From Candidatus Latescibacterota bacterium (GTDB lineage Bacteria; Latescibacterota; UBA2968; GCA-2709665), in the NCBI GenBank assembly GCA_963662665.2, contig CAXXJS010000061.1:32001-96000 (forward strand): DNA of 64,000 nucleotides. Reading direction: 5' to 3'. The notes beneath the pieces were generated by a model. That model searched no databases and was not told where the DNA came from. It was given only the letters and a program-made list of their open reading frames with translations. This document shows positions 2,741-61,298 of the stretch, piece by piece; the first letter of the stretch is position 1, and each line of letters opens with the position of its first letter. Made by a program: the position numbers and the translations under genes.

Positions 2741-3397
2741 ATGCTGAAAGCCATTCTTTGGGACAACGACGGCGTCCTGGTCGACACCGAAGGCCTGTAT
2801 TTCCAGGCCTGCCGCGAAACCCTTGAACCCCTCGGCGTCCGCCTGAGCGAAGCCCGTTTTATCGAGTCCTTCCTCAAGGCCAGCGATGGTCTTACCAGGA
2901 TCGCCGCCGAACACGGCATTGACGAACAGGCGCTGGAGTCCGCCCGCATCTGGCGCAACGCCCGCTATACCGAACGCTTGCGCGCCGGCGTACCCGTCAT
3001 CGACGGCGCTCGCCAGGTGCTGCGCCAACTTCACGGCACCGTGCGCATGGGCATCGTCACCAGTTCGCGGCGGGAGCACTTTGAGATCATCCACGCCGCC
3101 ACCGGCCTGCTGGACTGCATCGATTTCACGCTTGTGCGCGAAGACTACCGGCATTCCAAGCCGGACCCCGAGCCCTACCTCACGGCCATGCGGCAAAACG
3201 GCCTTAGCGCCGCCGAATGCGTCGTTATTGAAGACTCGGACCGGGGGCTGCGCGCCGCACTGGCGGCCGGGCTGCGCTGCATCGTCATACCGCAGGGCCT
3301 GACGCGCGGCCTGGACTTCACCGGCGCCACGCGGCAACTGACCGATATCCGTCAGGTCCCACCGCTGATCCATGAACTGATGCAAACTCAACCCTGA
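2741..3397 (+). CDS. HAD family phosphatase (HAD-IA)
   Basis: WDNDGVLVDTE motif I, SKPDPEPY, VIEDS motif. Confidence 0.92.
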   Translation: MLKAILWDNDGVLVDTEGLYFQACRETLEPLGVRLSEARFIESFLKASDGLTRIAAEHGIDEQALESARIWRNARYTERLRAGVPVIDGARQVLRQLHGTVRMGIVTSSRREHFEIIHAATGLLDCIDFTLVREDYRHSKPDPEPYLTAMRQNGLSAAECVVIEDSDRGLRAALAAGLRCIVIPQGLTRGLDFTGATRQLTDIRQVPPLIHELMQTQP

Positions 3398-3582
3398 TTT
3401 ATCATTTTTCGGGGACGTTAATTCGCATATACGCAAGTGTATAAGGGCGATTTGAAGTCGGATTTCTAGGAACCTTCAGGTCGCTGGACGTGAACGGAAA
3501 AAATGTCCATTTCAATGACCGACTCGACCCAATTTGGAAAGACTTTTCGCGGCACCGCGTTGTTGCTTTTGTGTAATTAAGC
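3392..3582 (+). mobile_element. MITE copy 1 (191 bp, diverged)
   Basis: Homologous to five other copies; flanked by a perfect TCAA duplication (3388-3391/3583-3586); supplies the TGA stop of the HAD gene. Confidence 0.8.
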
Positions 3583-7968: not shown

Positions 7969-8099
7969 CACGAGCACCCACGGCTCCAGCCATCCGACCT
8001 CCGCCCAACCTGGCTTCGCCGCCCTTCTGGCGCCCCGGCCCCTGGCAACCGGCTTCGCAGGTTCGCAAATCGTGAGACCTTGGCGGACGTCGTTTAGGC
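7963..8099 (+). other. attC-like site (long)
   Basis: GCATAAC...TTTAGGC; contains GCAACCGGCTTCGCAGGTTCGCAAATCGTGA, shared with the attC at 61209. Confidence 0.7.
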
Positions 8100-10640: not shown

Positions 10641-10831
10641 CCTTGATTGGTTGTTTTTCCGGGACGTAAAATCGAATTTAGGCAAGTGGATAAAGGCGAT
10701 TTGACTTCTGGTTACCGGGATACACCAGGTTACTGGACGTGAACTGAAAACACGTCCTTTTTGACGACCGTTACGCCGCGTTTCATGGGTTTTCGTCGCG
10801 TCGCCGCGTTGCTGTTTTTTTCGGACTGGGG
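10641..10831 (+). mobile_element. MITE copy 2 (191 bp)
   Basis: CCTTGATT...GACTGGGG, flanks TTAA/TTTA; sits between a stop codon and an attC. Confidence 0.88.
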
Positions 10832-21668: not shown

Positions 21669-21749
21669 GGGTAAATTCTGCGCCGCCTTCAGGCGGCTTG
21701 GGTTTCGCCAACCGGCTAAGCCGGTTCATTAATCCACAAAACGTTACCT
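21669..21749 (+). other. attC-like site (family B, degenerate)
   Basis: TTCTGCGCCGCC...CGCCAACCGGCTAAGCCGGTTC...AAAAC-GTTACCT. Confidence 0.6.
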
Positions 21750-28125: not shown

Positions 28126-28314
28126 CCTTGATTCGTAGTTCTTCGGGGAAGTAAAACTGAATATATGCAAGTAGAAAAAGGCGATTGACTTCTGATTACC
28201 AGGATACACCAGGTCACTGGACGTGAACTCAAATAATGTCCTTCTTGACGACCGTTACGCCCCGTTTCACGGATTTTCGTCGCGTTGCCGAGTTGCTGTT
28301 TTTTCGGATTGGGG
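28126..28314 (+). mobile_element. MITE copy 3 (189 bp)
   Basis: CCTTGATTCG...GGATTGGGG, flanks TTGA/TTAA. Confidence 0.88.
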
Positions 28315-28355: not shown

Positions 28356-28468
28356 ATTTAACTGCAGGGTCTGTGCCGCGGCGCGGAGCCTGTCCTGAGT
28401 TCACCGAACGGGCGCCCTGGCCTCCTGCAAATCGCTTTGCGAGTCCAGAAACCGGAATAACTTTAGAC
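28356..28468 (+). other. attC-like site (family B) with a REP-like insert
   Basis: ATTTAAC...TTTAGAC aligns with 10849-10939 except for extra CCTGTCCTGAGTTCACCGAACGG. Confidence 0.6.
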
Positions 28469-29878: not shown

Positions 29879-30069
29879 CCTTGATTCGACATTTTTCCGG
29901 GACGTTAAATCGAGTATAGGTAAGTGGATAAAGGTGATTTAACGGCTGATTACCAGGATACACCAGGTCACTGGACGCAAACTGAAAAAATGTCCTTTTT
30001 GACGACCGTTGCGCCCCGTTTCAGGGGTTTTCGTCGCGTCGTCGAGTTGCTGTTTTTTTCGGATTGGGG
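29879..30069 (+). mobile_element. MITE copy 4 (191 bp)
   Basis: CCTTGATTCG...GGATTGGGG, flanks CTGA/TTAA; abuts a stop codon. Confidence 0.88.
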
Positions 30070-31387: not shown

Positions 31388-32290
31388 ATGATCGGCTCTG
31401 AAAGCCAACCTATTATCGTACTTGGTGTGGAGCGTAGCGGGACATCTGTTGTTGCTGAGATGGTGCACGCATGGGGAGCGTACGCTGGCCCTTCCGAACA
31501 GTTGCACGCAGCTGATGCGCACGCACCCAGAGGATATTGGGAATATCTGCCGTTGTGGGATTTTCTGGCCGAGTTAGGGGATTTTGCTTCCGGAGCGACG
31601 TGGTGGGACGCTGAATTCCAGCAGCGAATGGAAGACAGAGCCTCTGAACCGGGTTACAGAATTAAAGCCGCTGAACTGATGTCAGAAATGGACGAGGGTG
31701 GTAAGTGGTTCTGGAAGGATCCTGCGCTCTGCCATTATTTGCCGTTTTTTAAGCAAATTTGGGGAGAGGCGATTTATCTGATCACCGTTCGCCACCCTCT
31801 CGACACAGCCGTGTCATGGCAAAAGTTCATCATGCCGCCCAATTTGAATGTCCGGATCTCGTTTGCGGCGACGAATCTGCTTCGCTGGCAGCACATGATG
31901 GCGCTGATCCTGCGCTACACCGACGACGCGGCGTACCGGCTTTTTGTTGGGTACGAAGATATCATGCGAAATCCACACCTGCAGGCCGAGAGATTGTCCA
32001 ATTTCCTGAACTCGAGGTTCGAGAATCGAGGCTCACGAATTCAGGAGATGGTTGATGCGGTTGATTCCCGACTGTGGCGGAACAATTGTAATATCTCCTT
32101 TGACCGGGCGCCAGAGGCGACAGAGCATCAGAAAGCTCTCTACGCCTTTGCAAGGCAGATGATCGACAATCCACTTCAATCGTTTGACAGTGCCAGGTAT
32201 CCGATGCCACCCGGGCATCTTGAGTTTCTGAACATTCAAGAGGCTTTGCTGAAGGCGTGTCGCGACCTTGAAACGCTTTCGAACGTGTAA
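31388..32290 (+). CDS. sulfotransferase family protein
   Basis: IIVLGVERSGTS PAPS loop; WKDP; VRHPLD.A.S. Confidence 0.88.
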   Translation: MIGSESQPIIVLGVERSGTSVVAEMVHAWGAYAGPSEQLHAADAHAPRGYWEYLPLWDFLAELGDFASGATWWDAEFQQRMEDRASEPGYRIKAAELMSEMDEGGKWFWKDPALCHYLPFFKQIWGEAIYLITVRHPLDTAVSWQKFIMPPNLNVRISFAATNLLRWQHMMALILRYTDDAAYRLFVGYEDIMRNPHLQAERLSNFLNSRFENRGSRIQEMVDAVDSRLWRNNCNISFDRAPEATEHQKALYAFARQMIDNPLQSFDSARYPMPPGHLEFLNIQEALLKACRDLETLSNV

Positions 32291-34757: not shown

Positions 34758-34877
34758 CCCCCCACCGCATCAGCCGTCGCCGGTTCCTTCGACAGGCTCA
34801 GGGCAGCGCCTTCGACCCTTCGACAAGCTCAGGGACCGGCTCGGCTTCTGCGACTCCCCCTCAAGGGGGGAGTAATT
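34758..34877 (+). repeat. palindromic REP-like element with tandem CTTCGACA.GCTCAGG units
   Basis: CCCCCCACCGCATCAGCCG...ACTCCCCCTCAAGGGGGGAGT; three copies in the window. Confidence 0.75.
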
Positions 34878-48168: not shown

Positions 48169-48831
48169 ATGTCATTCAGAATTGCGGACGATCAGGACGT
48201 CGATTATCGAGCGCTTGTCCGGGCGGCCTATGACCGCTGTGCGATGGAGTATGCACGGCGACGGCGCGCCACGGCCGGGCCGGAGCTCAACCTGATCACG
48301 GAGCGGCTGCCACCGGGTTCCAGTGTGCTTGACGTCGGCTGCGGCGCTGGCATTCCGGTCGCGCGCCACCTGGCAGAGACTTTTGACGTCACGGGAATCG
48401 ATATCTCTTCGAGCATGATTGCGCTGGCCACGAAAAACGTCCCTTCGGCCAGATTTGTCCACGCCGACGTTGTAGAGACCGAATTCCCCGAGGGTAGCTT
48501 CGATGCAATTGTCAGCTACTACTCTATCTTCCATATCCCCAGACTGGAGCATCGGGAACTACTTCGTCGATTCGCACGGTGGCTTCGGCCCGGTGGCCTC
48601 CTTCTGTTTACCGTTGCCAAAAAAGACGACGGACCTGGATATACCGAAGATGACTTCTTCGGCGAGACCATGTACTGGAGCAATTTCGGTCCCTCGACGT
48701 ACAGGAAGCTACTTGCTGACAGCGGGTTCAGGATCGAACAGGAAGGTATCGCAGGCGCCGGGTTTGCCAGCGTCGATGCGCTGGAAGAGGTTCACCCGTT
48801 ATTCTTCGCTGTCAGAAACGCGCGGGTGTAA
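48169..48831 (+). CDS. class I SAM-dependent methyltransferase
   Basis: VLDVGCGAGIP; FDAIVSYYSIFHIP; MYWS. Confidence 0.92.
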   Translation: MSFRIADDQDVDYRALVRAAYDRCAMEYARRRRATAGPELNLITERLPPGSSVLDVGCGAGIPVARHLAETFDVTGIDISSSMIALATKNVPSARFVHADVVETEFPEGSFDAIVSYYSIFHIPRLEHRELLRRFARWLRPGGLLLFTVAKKDDGPGYTEDDFFGETMYWSNFGPSTYRKLLADSGFRIEQEGIAGAGFASVDALEEVHPLFFAVRNARV

Positions 48832-48848
48832 TTTACCTTGATTCGATT

Positions 48849-50823
48849 GTGCGCCGTGAAAAGGCGCGGAACTTCAGTGGGTGAGAGTCCCACCCGACAG
48901 ATGTTGCCACAGTCGGAAGCAATCGGAGCGGAGACGCAGGTAACGACATCTCCGAAGCCTCCGGTGTAGAGGGTCGCCAGGCGACCCGGCGAGTATGTGG
49001 GCTGAAACGTGAGTAAACGCTGCGCAGGCCTCGAAAAAGGTAATGCGGGAGCCGACCCGGCTTTTGGACGGGGAAGGCCGCCGTCGTTGGGGAAGCAGGC
49101 AACGAGCGCACCCAACGGTCCCGCCGGGGTAATGGCGGAGGCACGCATACAAGGAGTTCCGACGCAACACGGGAAGCCCCAGCGGTGGGGGTGACACCAA
49201 CCGGCAGCCCGCGAGGGCCAGGCCGGGCCGCATGGGGTGGCGGAGAGGCCCGTAGTACCTGAGAAGCCGGGTAATGCCGGTGGAGGAAAGGGGCCTTGGT
49301 TCAAGGGCAACGTCAAAGGAGCGAGAGCCGGGAGATTGGTATGAGCCTAAGACCTCCGGACAAGGTTCGGAAGCTGCGGATGACGTTGCATGCCAAAGCG
49401 AAGGAATCGCCCGATTACCGATTCTACGCGCTATATGACAAAGTGTATCGCGAGGACATCCTGAACTATGCTTACCGCTGCTGCAAGGCCAACGGCGGCG
49501 CGGCGGGCGTGGACGGGGAGACTTTCGAGGACATCGAGACATATGGACGAGACCGGTGGTTAGGCGAACTGTCGGAAGCCGTAAGAAGCAAATCGTATCG
49601 GACCTCTCCGATTCGTCGGGTATATATCCCGAAGCCGAACGGGAAGCAACGGCCGCTGGGTATCCCGACGATCAGGGACCGTGCGGTGCAAACGGCGGCG
49701 GTGCTGGTCCTGGAGCCGATCATTGAAGCGGACCTGCCAGCAGGGCAGTATGCGTACCGTCCGAAGCGGAGCGCGCACGACGCCGTCAAGGCGGTTCACA
49801 GTCTGGTGAACCGAGGCCACACACAGGTGATCGACGCCGACTTGAGCGGCTACTTCGACACGATCCCGCACGCCGAGTTGATGAAATCGGTGGCGCGCCG
49901 CATCTCGGACGGGCGGATACTGCGTCTGATCAAGATGTGGCTGACCGCGCCGGTGGAAGAAACCGACAAGCGGGGCCGGAAACGTCGGACGACGCCGAAC
50001 AAGGACCAGGGAAGAGGGGTGCCGCAAGGCGCGCCCATCTCCCCGTTGCTGGCGAACCTGTATATGCGTCGGTTCATCCTGGGCTGGCGACTTCTGGGAC
50101 ATCAGCAACGTCTGAAGGCTCATATTGTCAACTACGCTGACGATTTTGTGATCTGCTGTCGCGGGTCTGCAAAAGAAGCGATGCGCGTGATGCGATGCAT
50201 GATGAAAGCGCTCAAGTTGACGGTCAACGAGCAGAAGACGAGCGTATGCACGCTTCCGGAAGGACGATTTGACTTCCTGGGTTACACCATCGGACGCTGT
50301 TACTCGCCAAAGACGGGCAAGGCCTACATCGGCACGCGTCCGTCAAAGAAGGCGATCCGGCACATCTGCCGGGCCATCAGCGAGGCCACGGCGCGACGGT
50401 GGTTGCTGAAAGACCATCAAGAACGGATTGCCCACCTGAACCGAAAACTGGCAGGCTGGGGCAACTACTTCCGTCTTGGACCGGTCAGCAAAGCCTACCG
50501 GAGTGTGGACAGCCACACCCGGCAACGGCTCCGATGGTGGTTGTGCAACAAGCACCGGATACCGGGAAAGGGAACGTCACGGTTCCCTGACGAGGTCCTC
50601 TACGATACGTTGGGCCTGACCCGGCTGGAAGCGCAGACGCGCAACTTTCCGTGGGCGAACGCATGACGCCTTGTCCGAGAGCCGGATGCGGTAACTCCGC
50701 ACGTCCGGTTCGACGAGCGGGACGTGGAAACGGGGCACGGAGGGGCTATTGAGGCACCGCCAGACGAAAGGGGCGGAAACAGATAGGCCACTCCTAAACC
50801 ACCGCGCCACATCTCGACTCTAC
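48849..50823 (+). mobile_element. group II intron (complete, not class IIC)
   Basis: 5' GTGCG; domain V GAGCCGGATGCGGTAACTCCGCACGTCCGGTTC (AGC triad); 3' ...CGACTCTAC; RT ORF inside. Confidence 0.95.
49341..50666 (+). CDS. ltrA: group II intron reverse transcriptase/maturase, no endonuclease domain
   Basis: GAAGVDG, RPLGIPT..DR, GVPQGAPISPLLAN, YADD, FDFLG, GWGNYF. Confidence 0.96.
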   Translation: MSLRPPDKVRKLRMTLHAKAKESPDYRFYALYDKVYREDILNYAYRCCKANGGAAGVDGETFEDIETYGRDRWLGELSEAVRSKSYRTSPIRRVYIPKPNGKQRPLGIPTIRDRAVQTAAVLVLEPIIEADLPAGQYAYRPKRSAHDAVKAVHSLVNRGHTQVIDADLSGYFDTIPHAELMKSVARRISDGRILRLIKMWLTAPVEETDKRGRKRRTTPNKDQGRGVPQGAPISPLLANLYMRRFILGWRLLGHQQRLKAHIVNYADDFVICCRGSAKEAMRVMRCMMKALKLTVNEQKTSVCTLPEGRFDFLGYTIGRCYSPKTGKAYIGTRPSKKAIRHICRAISEATARRWLLKDHQERIAHLNRKLAGWGNYFRLGPVSKAYRSVDSHTRQRLRWWLCNKHRIPGKGTSRFPDEVLYDTLGLTRLEAQTRNFPWANA

Positions 50824-51086
50824 TTCTTCGGGGAAGTAAAACCGAATAAATGCAAGTAGATAACGGCGATTTAACTTCTGATTACCAGGATACACCAGGT
50901 CACCGGACGTGAACTGAAAGAATGTCCTTTTTTACGACCGTTTCACCCCGTTTCAGGGCTTTTCGTCTCGTTGCCGAGTTGCTGTTTTTTTCGAATTGGG
51001 GTTAAGACCTGTCCAACGCCTCTTTACTGACATCCTGTCCGGGGCGAGCGCACTTGAAAAGCAATACCTGAAGAGAGGTCCTGCCT

Positions 51087-54929: not shown

Positions 54930-55035
54930 CCTTCGACGAACTCATGGCAGCGCCTGCGAACCTTCGAACGGCTCAGGCACTGCAGACTCAGGGATCGGCT
55001 CGGCTTCTGCGAGTCCCGCTCAAGGGGAGAGTGAT
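54930..55035 (+). repeat. palindromic REP-like element (third, diverged copy)
   Basis: CGGCTCGGCTTCTGCGA.TCCC.CTCAAGGGG shared with 34758-34877. Confidence 0.7.
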
Positions 55036-56766: not shown

Positions 56767-58107
56767 ATGTTTCGAATACAAATGAAAATCGCGCCGATGT
56801 TGCTTGCAGTATTGATACCATGCTCTTGGGCTTCAGCCGACGAATGGCCGCAATGGCGCGGACCGGAGAGGGACGGCGTATGGCGTGAAACCGGGATTAT
56901 CGAAAAGTTCGACGGGCCGGACATCCCGATCCGCTGGCGAGTGCCCATCGGCAGCGGCTACAGCGGCCCGAGTGTCGTGGGCGGGCGCGTCTACATTACT
57001 GACAGGCTTGCGAAACCGAAACAGGTTGAACGGGTCCAATGTTTCGCATGGGAAACGGGCGAACTGATCTGGTCCTACACGTACGATTGCGAGTACCGAA
57101 TCGGCTACGTTGCGGGTCCCCGCGCGACGGTTACCGTGCATAACGGCCTCGCTTACGCCCTCGGGGCGACGGGACATCTCCACTGCTTCGATGCGGCGAC
57201 GGGCGAACTGAAGTGGAATAGAGACCTGAACGCTGAATACAATATTGCGATGCCAACGTGGGGTATCGCTAGCGCGCCCATCGTTGAAGGCTCGAACGTG
57301 GTCGTCCAGATTGGCGGAACGCCCGGAGCGTGTATCGTCGCTTTCGACAGAGAAACGGGAGCCGAGAAATGGAAGGCCCTTGATGACAAAGCATCTTACT
57401 CCGCCCCGATTGTGATTACGCAGGGCAATGCGCGCGTCCTGGTCTCTCGGACAGCCGAGAGCATCGTCGGTCTCAACCCGAAGACGGGCGGTGTGTACTG
57501 GCGCCATCCCTTTCCGCCGAATCGCATGGAGATCGGAATCGCATCCCCCGTCCTCTATCGTAACGAGTTGTTTTTCACAGACTTCTTTGATGGGTCCTTG
57601 CTACTTAAACTGAATCCAAGAAAGCCGGAGATGCAATTCGGGTGGCACCGTAAGGGAGAGAGTGAAAGAAACACGGATGCGCTGCATTCAACGATGTCGA
57701 CTCCGGTCCGACTTGGAGATTATATCTACGGCGTGGACAGTTACGGGGAACTCCGCTGTCTGGATGCCCGCAACGGCGATCGGATCTGGGAAGACCTCAC
57801 CGCGGTTCCCAAAGCCCGCTGGAGCAATATCCATTTTATCAGAAACGGCGACAGGGTCTGGATGTTCAACGAGCGGGGTGAACTGCTGATCACCACGCTT
57901 TCGCCGGACGGGCTGAACATCATCAGTCGCGCGAAACTGATCGAGCCCACACGCGACCAGTTGAACCGCAGAGGTGGCGTCACGTGGGCGCATCCCGGTT
58001 TCGCCTATAAACACGTGTTCGTGCGAAATGACGAGGAACTGGTCTGCGCCAGTCTGGCGCAAAGCGAGGATAAGGATGACCGGGAATCTTCCGGAAACGA
58101 ACCTTGA
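56767..58107 (+). CDS. secreted PQQ-binding-like beta-propeller protein
   Basis: Signal peptide, DEWPQWRGP.RDG, repeated D..TG...W, TWAHP. Confidence 0.92.
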   Translation: MFRIQMKIAPMLLAVLIPCSWASADEWPQWRGPERDGVWRETGIIEKFDGPDIPIRWRVPIGSGYSGPSVVGGRVYITDRLAKPKQVERVQCFAWETGELIWSYTYDCEYRIGYVAGPRATVTVHNGLAYALGATGHLHCFDAATGELKWNRDLNAEYNIAMPTWGIASAPIVEGSNVVVQIGGTPGACIVAFDRETGAEKWKALDDKASYSAPIVITQGNARVLVSRTAESIVGLNPKTGGVYWRHPFPPNRMEIGIASPVLYRNELFFTDFFDGSLLLKLNPRKPEMQFGWHRKGESERNTDALHSTMSTPVRLGDYIYGVDSYGELRCLDARNGDRIWEDLTAVPKARWSNIHFIRNGDRVWMFNERGELLITTLSPDGLNIISRAKLIEPTRDQLNRRGGVTWAHPGFAYKHVFVRNDEELVCASLAQSEDKDDRESSGNEP

Positions 58108-58291
58108 TACATTATTCTTCCGGGACGTAAAATCGAATATAGGCAAGTGGATAAAGGCGATTTGACGGCTGCCTACCAGGATACACCAGGTCACTGGACG
58201 CGAACTGAAAAAACGTCCTTTTTGCCGACCGTTGCGCTCCGTTTCAGGGGTTTTCGTCGCGTTGCCGAGTTGCTGTTTTTTCGAATTGGGA
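58102..58291 (+). mobile_element. MITE copy 6 (190 bp)
   Basis: Perfect CGAA duplication (58098-58101/58292-58295); provides the TGA stop of the upstream gene. Confidence 0.9.
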
Positions 58292-61208: not shown

Positions 61209-61298
61209 ATCTAACACAGCATTTTGCGCTGCGGCGTATACGCGCCTTGGGCTACGCCAACCCGCTGCGCGGGTTCGCAAATCGTGAAACCGTTATAT
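61209..61298 (+). other. attC site (family B, intact)
   Basis: ATCTAAC...ATTTTGCG...TTCGCAAAT...GTTATAT. Confidence 0.9.

Follow-up and report, generated by a model that had tools for sequence, protein, structure and literature searches.

The window considered here is a stretch of 64,000 nucleotides (nt) from contig CAXXJS010000061.1 of a Candidatus Latescibacterota bacterium (positions 32,001 to 96,000 of the forward strand), and within it a group II intron lies inside a miniature inverted-repeat transposable element (MITE). The locus sits between two methyltransferase-like genes on the same strand, with the MITE starting 5 nt past the stop codon of the upstream gene. The intron occupies positions 48849-50823 (1975 nt), and its removal in silico restores a 191-nt element (48836-48848 joined to 50824-51001) that is colinear with five empty copies elsewhere in the window; the coordinates given in a preliminary description of this sequence, which placed the insertion 13 nt from the left end of the MITE, were thus exact. 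The features of the locus are listed below, where EBS and IBS denote exon-binding and intron-binding sites, respectively.

48832..48835, + strand: left 4-nt MITE flank TTTA at the target-site-duplication position, with 3/4 bases as in the right flank
48833-48839, + strand: candidate IBS2, extending into the flank
48836..48848, + strand: first 13 nt of the MITE, forming the left inverted-repeat tip and serving as 5' exon (IBS1 at 48843-48848)
48849..50823, + strand: full-length group II intron, GTGCG...AC (boundaries, Rfam, copies)
48875..49012, + strand: domain I segment, RF02003 (90.4 bits)
49037..49043, + strand: candidate EBS2 AAGGTAA, tentative (7/7 pairs with exon positions -16 to -10)
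49062..49067, + strand: EBS1 loop, TTTTGG in the window copy, the hypervariable hexamer of the intron family (covariation)
49341..50666, + strand: intron-encoded protein (IEP), 441 amino acids (aa), reverse transcriptase (RT) and maturase, YADD (Pfam, TIGR04416)
50679..50712, + strand: domain V, 34 nt, AGC triad (fold, RF00029)
50715..50823, + strand: extended domain VI with bulged A at 50817 (fold)
50824..51001, + strand: remaining 178 nt of the MITE, the 3' exon, with the right inverted repeat at its end (alignment)
51002..51005, + strand: right 4-nt flank TTAA (sequence)

The boundaries of the intron, GTGCG at 48849 and AC at 50822-50823 (last bases CTAC), are the same in all 11 copies found in the genome. 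Between them, the Rfam model group-II-D1D4-4 (RF02003) matches 48875-49012 with 90.4 bits against a gathering score of 49, and the model of domains V and VI (RF00029) matches 50677-50823 over its full length, stopping exactly at the last intron base, which is the proposed 3' splice site. This second match was obtained at relaxed thresholds and its 35.7 bits are under the gathering score of 40, as domain VI carries an insertion. Folding of the last 164 nt gives a canonical 34-nt domain V hairpin, bearing the AGC triad that had been noticed earlier, and a long domain VI whose basal helix holds a bulged A at 50817, the predicted branch point, 7 nt from the 3' splice site. The ribozyme minus domain IV amounts to about 600 nt. 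A match to the thiamine pyrophosphate riboswitch within the intron (24.5 bits, gathering score 54.3) was taken as chance.

The open reading frame (ORF) at 49341-50666 encodes a 441 aa IEP that matches RVT_1 (2.7e-36) and GIIM (2.4e-13) and no other Pfam domain, and that scores 354 bits against TIGR04416, the NCBIfam model of group II RT/maturases (cut-off 300). The YADD motif is present, and the protein ends after the maturase (X) domain and has no endonuclease domain. Taken together, the boundaries, the ribozyme domains and the RT/maturase ORF indicate a group II intron that encodes an RT, looks intact and lacks an endonuclease domain. With an IEP consisting of RT and X domains only, the intron appears to be IIB-like and would fall among the lineages that lack the endonuclease (classes D, E, F and newer groups). 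In a search of solved structures the IEP came nearest to IIC-type RTs among PDB entries, a proximity that is not a classification; its best plasmid-borne relatives, on Planctomycetes plasmids, are 63-65% identical, and a copy on a Nitrobacter hamburgensis plasmid is 50% identical. A class C (IIC) or attC-type intron was rejected, as the preliminary description had also held, because EBS1 is a covarying 6-nt element and nothing is conserved upstream of the insertion site beyond about 17 nt.

The host element belongs to a large family. Five empty copies lie in the window, all on the + strand:

3392..3578, + strand: diverged empty MITE copy, about 71% identity over the BLAST-matched part
10641..10831, + strand: empty MITE copy (BLAST, alignment)
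28126..28314, + strand: empty MITE copy, 'copy 3' of the preliminary description (BLAST, alignment)
29879..30069, + strand: empty MITE copy (BLAST, alignment)
58102..58291, + strand: empty MITE copy (BLAST, alignment)

An 18-nt motif just 3' of the insertion site occurs four times in the window (at most 3 mismatches) where 0.03 occurrences would be expected. BLAST of the 191-nt element against the whole genome (4.86 Mb) gives 78 matches, including 68 of 150 nt or more, and 66 copies were aligned (57 empty ones and, after excision of the intron in silico, the 9 with an insertion at 13|14), leaving out 10 short fragments, the diverged copy at 3392, whose match began at query base 14, and a copy on contig C24 that is discussed below. 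The body of the element is 188-192 nt in 65 of the 66 aligned copies and 178 nt in the other, and the conserved block has sharp edges, with consensus ends that are complementary over about 14 nt and pair in the fold. The 4-nt flanks, mostly CTAA or TTAA, are identical on both sides in 41/66 copies (mean of 14.9 and maximum of 25 in 2000 shuffles), and rare flank sequences likewise match on both sides. In public run X2, from a sponge metagenome in which a slightly diverged relative is present, a contig joins 48833 to 51005 with one letter between, representing a site with neither MITE nor intron (single contig, depth 12.5), which implies that the MITE insertion at the window locus is younger than the split from that relative.

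A 1553-nt element elsewhere in the genome (G000:C57:49338-50890, locus L071) is flanked by CTAA on both sides and encodes a 459-aa transposase of the IS1380 family (NF033539, 215 bits, cut-off 180), and its ends, judged by eye, resemble those of the MITE over about 13-16 nt. It is likely the autonomous partner of the MITE, which on these likenesses probably derives from an insertion sequence (IS) of the IS1380 family. It came from a search for a parent IS that demanded identical 4-nt flanks and returned 8 pairs, namely five MITE-intron composites, two chance pairs whose ends were unlike and this one element; looser end-pattern searches gave thousands of chance matches and were uninformative. 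Inverted repeats, flank duplications, the empty site and the IS1380 element together justify the name MITE. Structured RNA was rejected as a description of the element, since it folds no better than its shuffles (z = 0.23) and has no Rfam match at E up to 1, and a terminator-like site was sought in the MITE and not found. Within the genus the MITE family is present in 13 of the 14 other genomes searched, as is the intron family (likewise 13/14), and the MITE was not found in any of 26 further genomes, from outside the genus, that were searched.

A BLAST search with the intron identified 11 copies in the genome, of which three are full-length (the window copy, one on C24 differing by 1 nt and one on C16 differing by 19 nt) and eight are ORF-less elements of 756 nt that retain about the first 448 nt and about the last 151 nt. 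The ORF is intact in all three full-length copies, with 3 amino-acid changes against 14 nucleotide differences. Nine copies, the eight ORF-less ones and that of the window, share both their insertion point (MITE position 13|14) and their orientation. On C24, the intron is found in an oppositely oriented MITE, at an internal look-alike site preceded by the same 13 nt as the window site, which brings the number of copies within this MITE family to 10/11; the C16 copy is outside any MITE, in sequence resembling the MITE left end. Location of the other copies in unrelated sequence, which had been named beforehand as pointing to a chance insertion, is thus not what is seen. Sequence upstream of about -17 is unrelated among the copies and holds no shared hairpin. 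None of the 11 insertion sites is inside an ORF of at least 150 aa (a crude ORF rule), with two overlapping an ORF end by 3 and 29 nt, and by the same length limit the upstream ORF is on the strand of the intron in six of the 11 copies, which represents no clear orientation bias.

The differences among the copies of this genome concentrate at intron positions 212-219. With 50 further copies fetched from nine genomes of the same genus, this block was by far the most variable of domain I (61 copies, 11 genomes), and the hexamer within it sits in a hairpin loop framed by a conserved stem, as would be expected of EBS1. The loop could be located in 60 copies and takes 14 different sequences across the 11 genomes; nevertheless, it pairs with the IBS1 of its own site at 5/6 or more positions in 51/60 copies and at 6/6 in 40/60 (shuffle mean 14.2, maximum 25). 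In the eight ORF-less copies of this genome the complementarity is 6/6 at six sites and 5/6 at the other two. The single-contig genome G009 offers a further example, in which two ORF-less copies at the same position of this MITE family carry an EBS1 other than that of the present genome and IBS1 is changed to match. The EBS1 that had been proposed earlier, CAACGA near 49100, is therefore replaced by the covarying loop at 49062-49067. EBS1-IBS1 pairing holds for the family, including all eight ORF-less copies; the window copy itself pairs at only 4/6 positions, and its matching EBS1 variant is found in the C16 copy.

Occupancy of the MITEs follows the same pairing. ORF-less introns are present in 8/20 MITEs with TCGCAA or TCGCTA at positions 8-13 and in 0/45 with other hexamers (Fisher p = 2.5e-5 for the 65 MITEs other than that of the window, a value to be read with the caution that the copies are related and not independent). 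The five empty MITEs of the window carry no cognate IBS1 for any EBS1 variant of this genome, contrary to an earlier proposal that EBS1 pairs better with two of them than with the occupied site, and their emptiness is consistent with this lack. A second contact may be made by the loop at 49037-49043, which matches exon positions -16 to -10 in 7/7 pairs for the window copy and in 6/7 for most ORF-less sites; it is tentatively assigned as EBS2, with IBS2 formed by the last flank bases and the first MITE bases. An EBS3 was not found, as no column of domain I tracked the +1 base.

The introns were inserted independently of the copying of their hosts. The MITE bodies that host ORF-less introns differ at 6-23 of 191 nt (mean 14.9, from which about 59 differences would be predicted in 756 nt), and the eight ORF-less introns are within 0-1 nt of their reference copy. 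No two of the nine occupied bodies are identical (6-25 differences), the nearest relative is an empty copy alone for five of the nine, an empty and an occupied copy tie for two more, and one occupied body is identical to an empty copy, the empty one having IBS1 TCGCAA. Diverged hosts, near-identical introns and empty nearest relatives together argue for separate insertions into pre-existing MITEs, and the earlier idea of the MITE as a repeated landing pad is borne out by the count of copies in the family, by their common position and by an occupancy that follows EBS1-IBS1 pairing.

By analogy with established group II intron biology, from which splicing, the reverse-splicing route and mobilization in trans are all taken, an IIB-like intron without an endonuclease domain would spread in the genome by retrohoming. 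The excised intron RNA, bound to the RT/maturase, would reverse-splice into DNA where EBS1 and probably also EBS2 can pair, and would then be copied into DNA. The preferred target would be the left inverted repeat of the MITE, in its outer 13-17 nt, leading to insertion at 13|14, and the roughly 70 copies of this non-coding, intergenic element would offer many harmless sites. The 756-nt derivative is presumably mobilized in trans by the protein from the three full-length copies. We give retrohoming into MITEs guided by EBS1 pairing, with the ORF-less form served in trans, a probability of roughly 80%.

Several observations weigh against this reading. The window, C24 and C16 copies each pair at only 4/6 positions with their own exon as assembled; the EBS1 of the C16 copy would instead pair perfectly with the window and C24 exons, and the EBS1 shared by the window and C24 copies pairs 6/6 with the C16 exon, but through three G-U pairs. 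Concerning EBS2, a free-register 5-mer test gave no excess of pairing (26/59 against a shuffle mean of 23.6) and a fixed-register 7-mer test gave a small one only (mean of 3.78 against 3.14 pairs), and it is this weak covariation across the family that keeps the assignment tentative. Eleven empty MITEs, e.g., C10:386011-386203, carry the perfect IBS1 (TCGCAA) for the ORF-less intron, indicating that homing is a long way from saturation and perhaps no longer active. The eight ORF-less copies could owe part of their near-identity to collapse of repeats by the assembler, although the nearest-neighbour argument holds regardless. Lastly, all public runs found consist of contigs of DNA or of unknown type.

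The crossed EBS1 sequences of the full-length copies may be explained in two ways, which stand at roughly even odds with assembly error slightly ahead. The 211 nt between the exon junction and the EBS1 loop are identical in all three full-length copies, such that an assembler could have exchanged the loops. The public runs, taken as Logan contigs, break or pop bubbles in the repeat and cannot link a flank to a loop 212 nt away, and stretches uncovered in some runs carry no information. In run X15, which has the window flanks without difference, a single contig over 49060-49067 shows the AATCGA variant of the C16 type, a weak hint that AATCGA is the commoner full-length variant there; this would fit a swap during assembly better than a true mismatch, weak as the evidence is. 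Alternatively, the mismatch is real and patches of domain I including EBS1 were exchanged between copies by recombination or gene conversion after insertion, which is conceivable and somewhat doubtful. The tree of domains I-III mixes ORF-less and full-length copies, with at least four label changes of which two are forced by well-supported branches, all 28 ORF-less copies of the genus have one homologous domain IV, so that the 5' ribozyme and domain IV have different histories, and one copy of G012, a two-contig assembly, is likewise at a site that fits the EBS1 of a sibling. Several events would nevertheless be needed for a reciprocal exchange to give the window and C24 copies, which are identical, the same 'wrong' loop.

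The preliminary description had also proposed that the MITE and its intron might travel together as a 2.2-kb composite; in such a reading, an IS1380-type transposase would move the unit, with the intron as cargo of a non-autonomous DNA transposon. Occupied copies do keep both MITE ends and the 4-nt flanking repeats, which are identical in six of the nine, and the occupied copies on C50, C40 and C28 belong to one MITE subfamily with only 6-8 nt between them. The proposal is nonetheless very improbable, as the occupied bodies are never identical to one another and so often have an empty copy as their closest relative; for the host on C23, for instance, an empty copy is found at a distance of 3 nt, with all remaining occupied ones at 18-25 nt. 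Divergence is about 50-fold lower among the introns than among their hosts, occupancy follows the IBS1 hexamer, which transposase-driven copying does not require, and the other full-length intron in a MITE (C24) is at a different position and on a different strand.

Slightly less probable still is that the occupied MITEs are an assembly artefact, the assembler having threaded a repeated intron into various MITE contexts, with few of the junctions, or just one, being real. Intron and MITE are both repeats, the eight ORF-less copies are suspiciously uniform, and the full-length EBS1 variants look swapped across the identical 211-nt stretch. Against this, just 13 nt of MITE separate the unique flank from the 5' junction of the intron, a distance spanned by ordinary reads and k-mers; the window junction is spanned with 0 differences in X15 (48654-48865) and X19 (48300-48878), runs which may themselves be the source of the assembly; and G009, a single-contig genome, shows this arrangement too. 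A single chance insertion into a repeat, without targeting, is refuted by nine copies at one nucleotide position and by EBS1-IBS1 covariation in 51 of 60 copies.

Both ends of the intron were found for 57 copies in the genus, 29 full-length and 28 ORF-less, the latter distributed over 8 of the 11 genomes with intron copies. All 28 share one homologous domain IV of about 160 nt, indicating a single deletion lineage, and in this form the ribozyme domains are retained, as are the first part of domain IV and a mutated vestige of the ORF start. ORF-less and full-length copies are intermixed in a domain I-III tree built with a masked EBS1 loop, and the ORF-less ones of this genome group with its own full-length copies. 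The difference between the histories of the 5' ribozyme and of domain IV points to recombination between full-length and ORF-less forms. Tandem introns occur in locus L038 (G003:C52, end of a contig), where the final base of one intron copy is directly followed by an ORF-less intron.

Other targets are used by relatives of the intron within the genus. One group of sibling introns has EBS1 CATGGA and is inserted after TCCATG, within a different interspersed repeat that consists of a reiterated ATCCTGT-type motif followed by TAAGTT:

loci L027-L036, L041-L047, L066, L067 (genomes G001, G007, G009): CATGGA-type sibling introns

The repeat used by these introns represents a second multicopy landing pad in the genus. 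Introns with EBS1 TGAATT are found 13 nt inside element ends that start with CCTGA (L056, L057, L062 and L063 in G013 and G011; L022 and L026 in G001). In G011 and G013 the exons resemble two abutted 13-nt ends, giving a 26-bp palindrome-like unit with YTAR-like flanks and the intron in its centre, in both orientations. Several of the sibling introns in relatives are thus 13 nt inside an element end after a YTAR-like flank, which suggests that the ends of an IS family of the IS1380 type may have been the ancestral target.

According to the review by Zimmerly and Semper (PMC4424553), ORF-less introns are rare in bacteria and their derivatives short-lived, to which this genus is an exception, as is Thermosynechococcus elongatus. 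It is possible, and put forward here only tentatively, that the genus holds a long-lived non-autonomous retroelement, i.e., one ORF-less lineage spread across species that swaps ribozyme modules with autonomous partners and re-targets itself through EBS1, with an ancestral site at 13|14 of IS1380-type inverted repeats in the form of MITEs, IS ends and 26-bp abutted ends. If true, this would be a retroelement specialized on the ends of DNA transposons, whose insertion may disable or tag those ends, and it would contradict the general view of ORF-less bacterial introns as rare, immobile and short-lived.

A number of further observations were made on repeats. Weaker matches to the intron ends (71-78% identity) are present at G000:C5:13735-13948, C5:37278-37342 and C10:148815-148958 and may be fragments or a second, more distant intron family. 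C14 carries a 349-nt fragment that is 90.5% identical to the end of the IS1380-family element L071. At G000:C9:10032-10323, C36:43134-43446, C30:42479-42732 and C24:7975-8270, MITEs abut or are nested in other MITEs and share a 4-nt flank, and thus appear to insert next to or into each other. The window also holds a family of repeats of ~50 nt with an internal palindrome, in four copies with 60-78% identity (8030-8079, 21693-21742, 28412-28461 and 61242-61291), which may be what the preliminary description called 'cassettes', and a 49-nt direct repeat pair with 90% identity (34828-34876 and 54987-55035).

Group II introns persist in bacteria by homing where they are harmless, and the system here is a clean natural case in which the harmless homing site is a non-coding MITE present in dozens of copies. 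With at least 14 EBS1 variants in 11 related genomes, most of them matched to their sites, it also supplies natural data on the targeting rules of endonuclease-less introns. An ORF-less lineage in eight genomes bears on proliferation that depends on protein supplied in trans, a notion central to ideas on the origin of spliceosomal introns, and represents a second, genus-wide case of ORF-less intron proliferation. In annotation, elements of 756 nt without an ORF would escape intron finders based on ORFs.

In comparing the system to those already described, IIC introns, which insert after terminators or attC sites, are alike in that their safe site is a motif that is structurally defined, non-coding and repeated in the genome. 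They differ in having part of EBS1 missing and no EBS2, according to PMC3753933, whereas the intron here has a covarying EBS1 of 6 nt. The E. coli IIB1 intron specialized on the groEL stop codon (Gomes et al. 2025, PMC12584367) is likewise a lineage that is specialized on one genetic context; its site is in a single-copy host gene, in contrast to the multicopy transposon used here.

Likeness is also seen with RmInt1 of Sinorhizobium meliloti and its relatives. The RmInt1 target is reportedly ISRm2011-2, with the site inside an autonomous IS, whereas the present intron uses the terminal repeat of a non-coding MITE of 191 nt. RmInt1 and its relatives home into insertion sequences (PMC4615759, PMC4181065 and PMC5894124), and they share with the present intron an RT/maturase without endonuclease, a high copy number, homing into a mobile element and not host genes, and a target specificity that diverges, thereby avoiding saturation of sites.

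TeI3/TeI4 of T. elongatus are described by Mohr, Ghanem and Lambowitz 2010 (PMC2882425) as having ORF-less copies that stem from one ORF deletion and outnumber the ORF-containing ones, with diverged EBS families that match their own, mostly intergenic sites and mobilization in trans by sibling IEPs that has been shown. The system here is similar in its many close copies, single ORF-deletion lineage, EBS families, mostly intergenic sites and proposed mobilization in trans. It departs from TeI3/TeI4 in that its main target is the inverted-repeat tip of an already multicopy MITE, its ORF-less lineage is present in 8 of 11 genomes, its IEP has no endonuclease domain and it is known from sequence alone. 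Full-text literature searches, mostly judged by title or abstract, found no published group II intron homing into a MITE. Retrohoming into other mobile elements under EBS/IBS guidance was known already, as were diverging specificities and the support of ORF-less introns in trans, and the new parts are the MITE as a target and an ORF-less lineage that extends across a genus.

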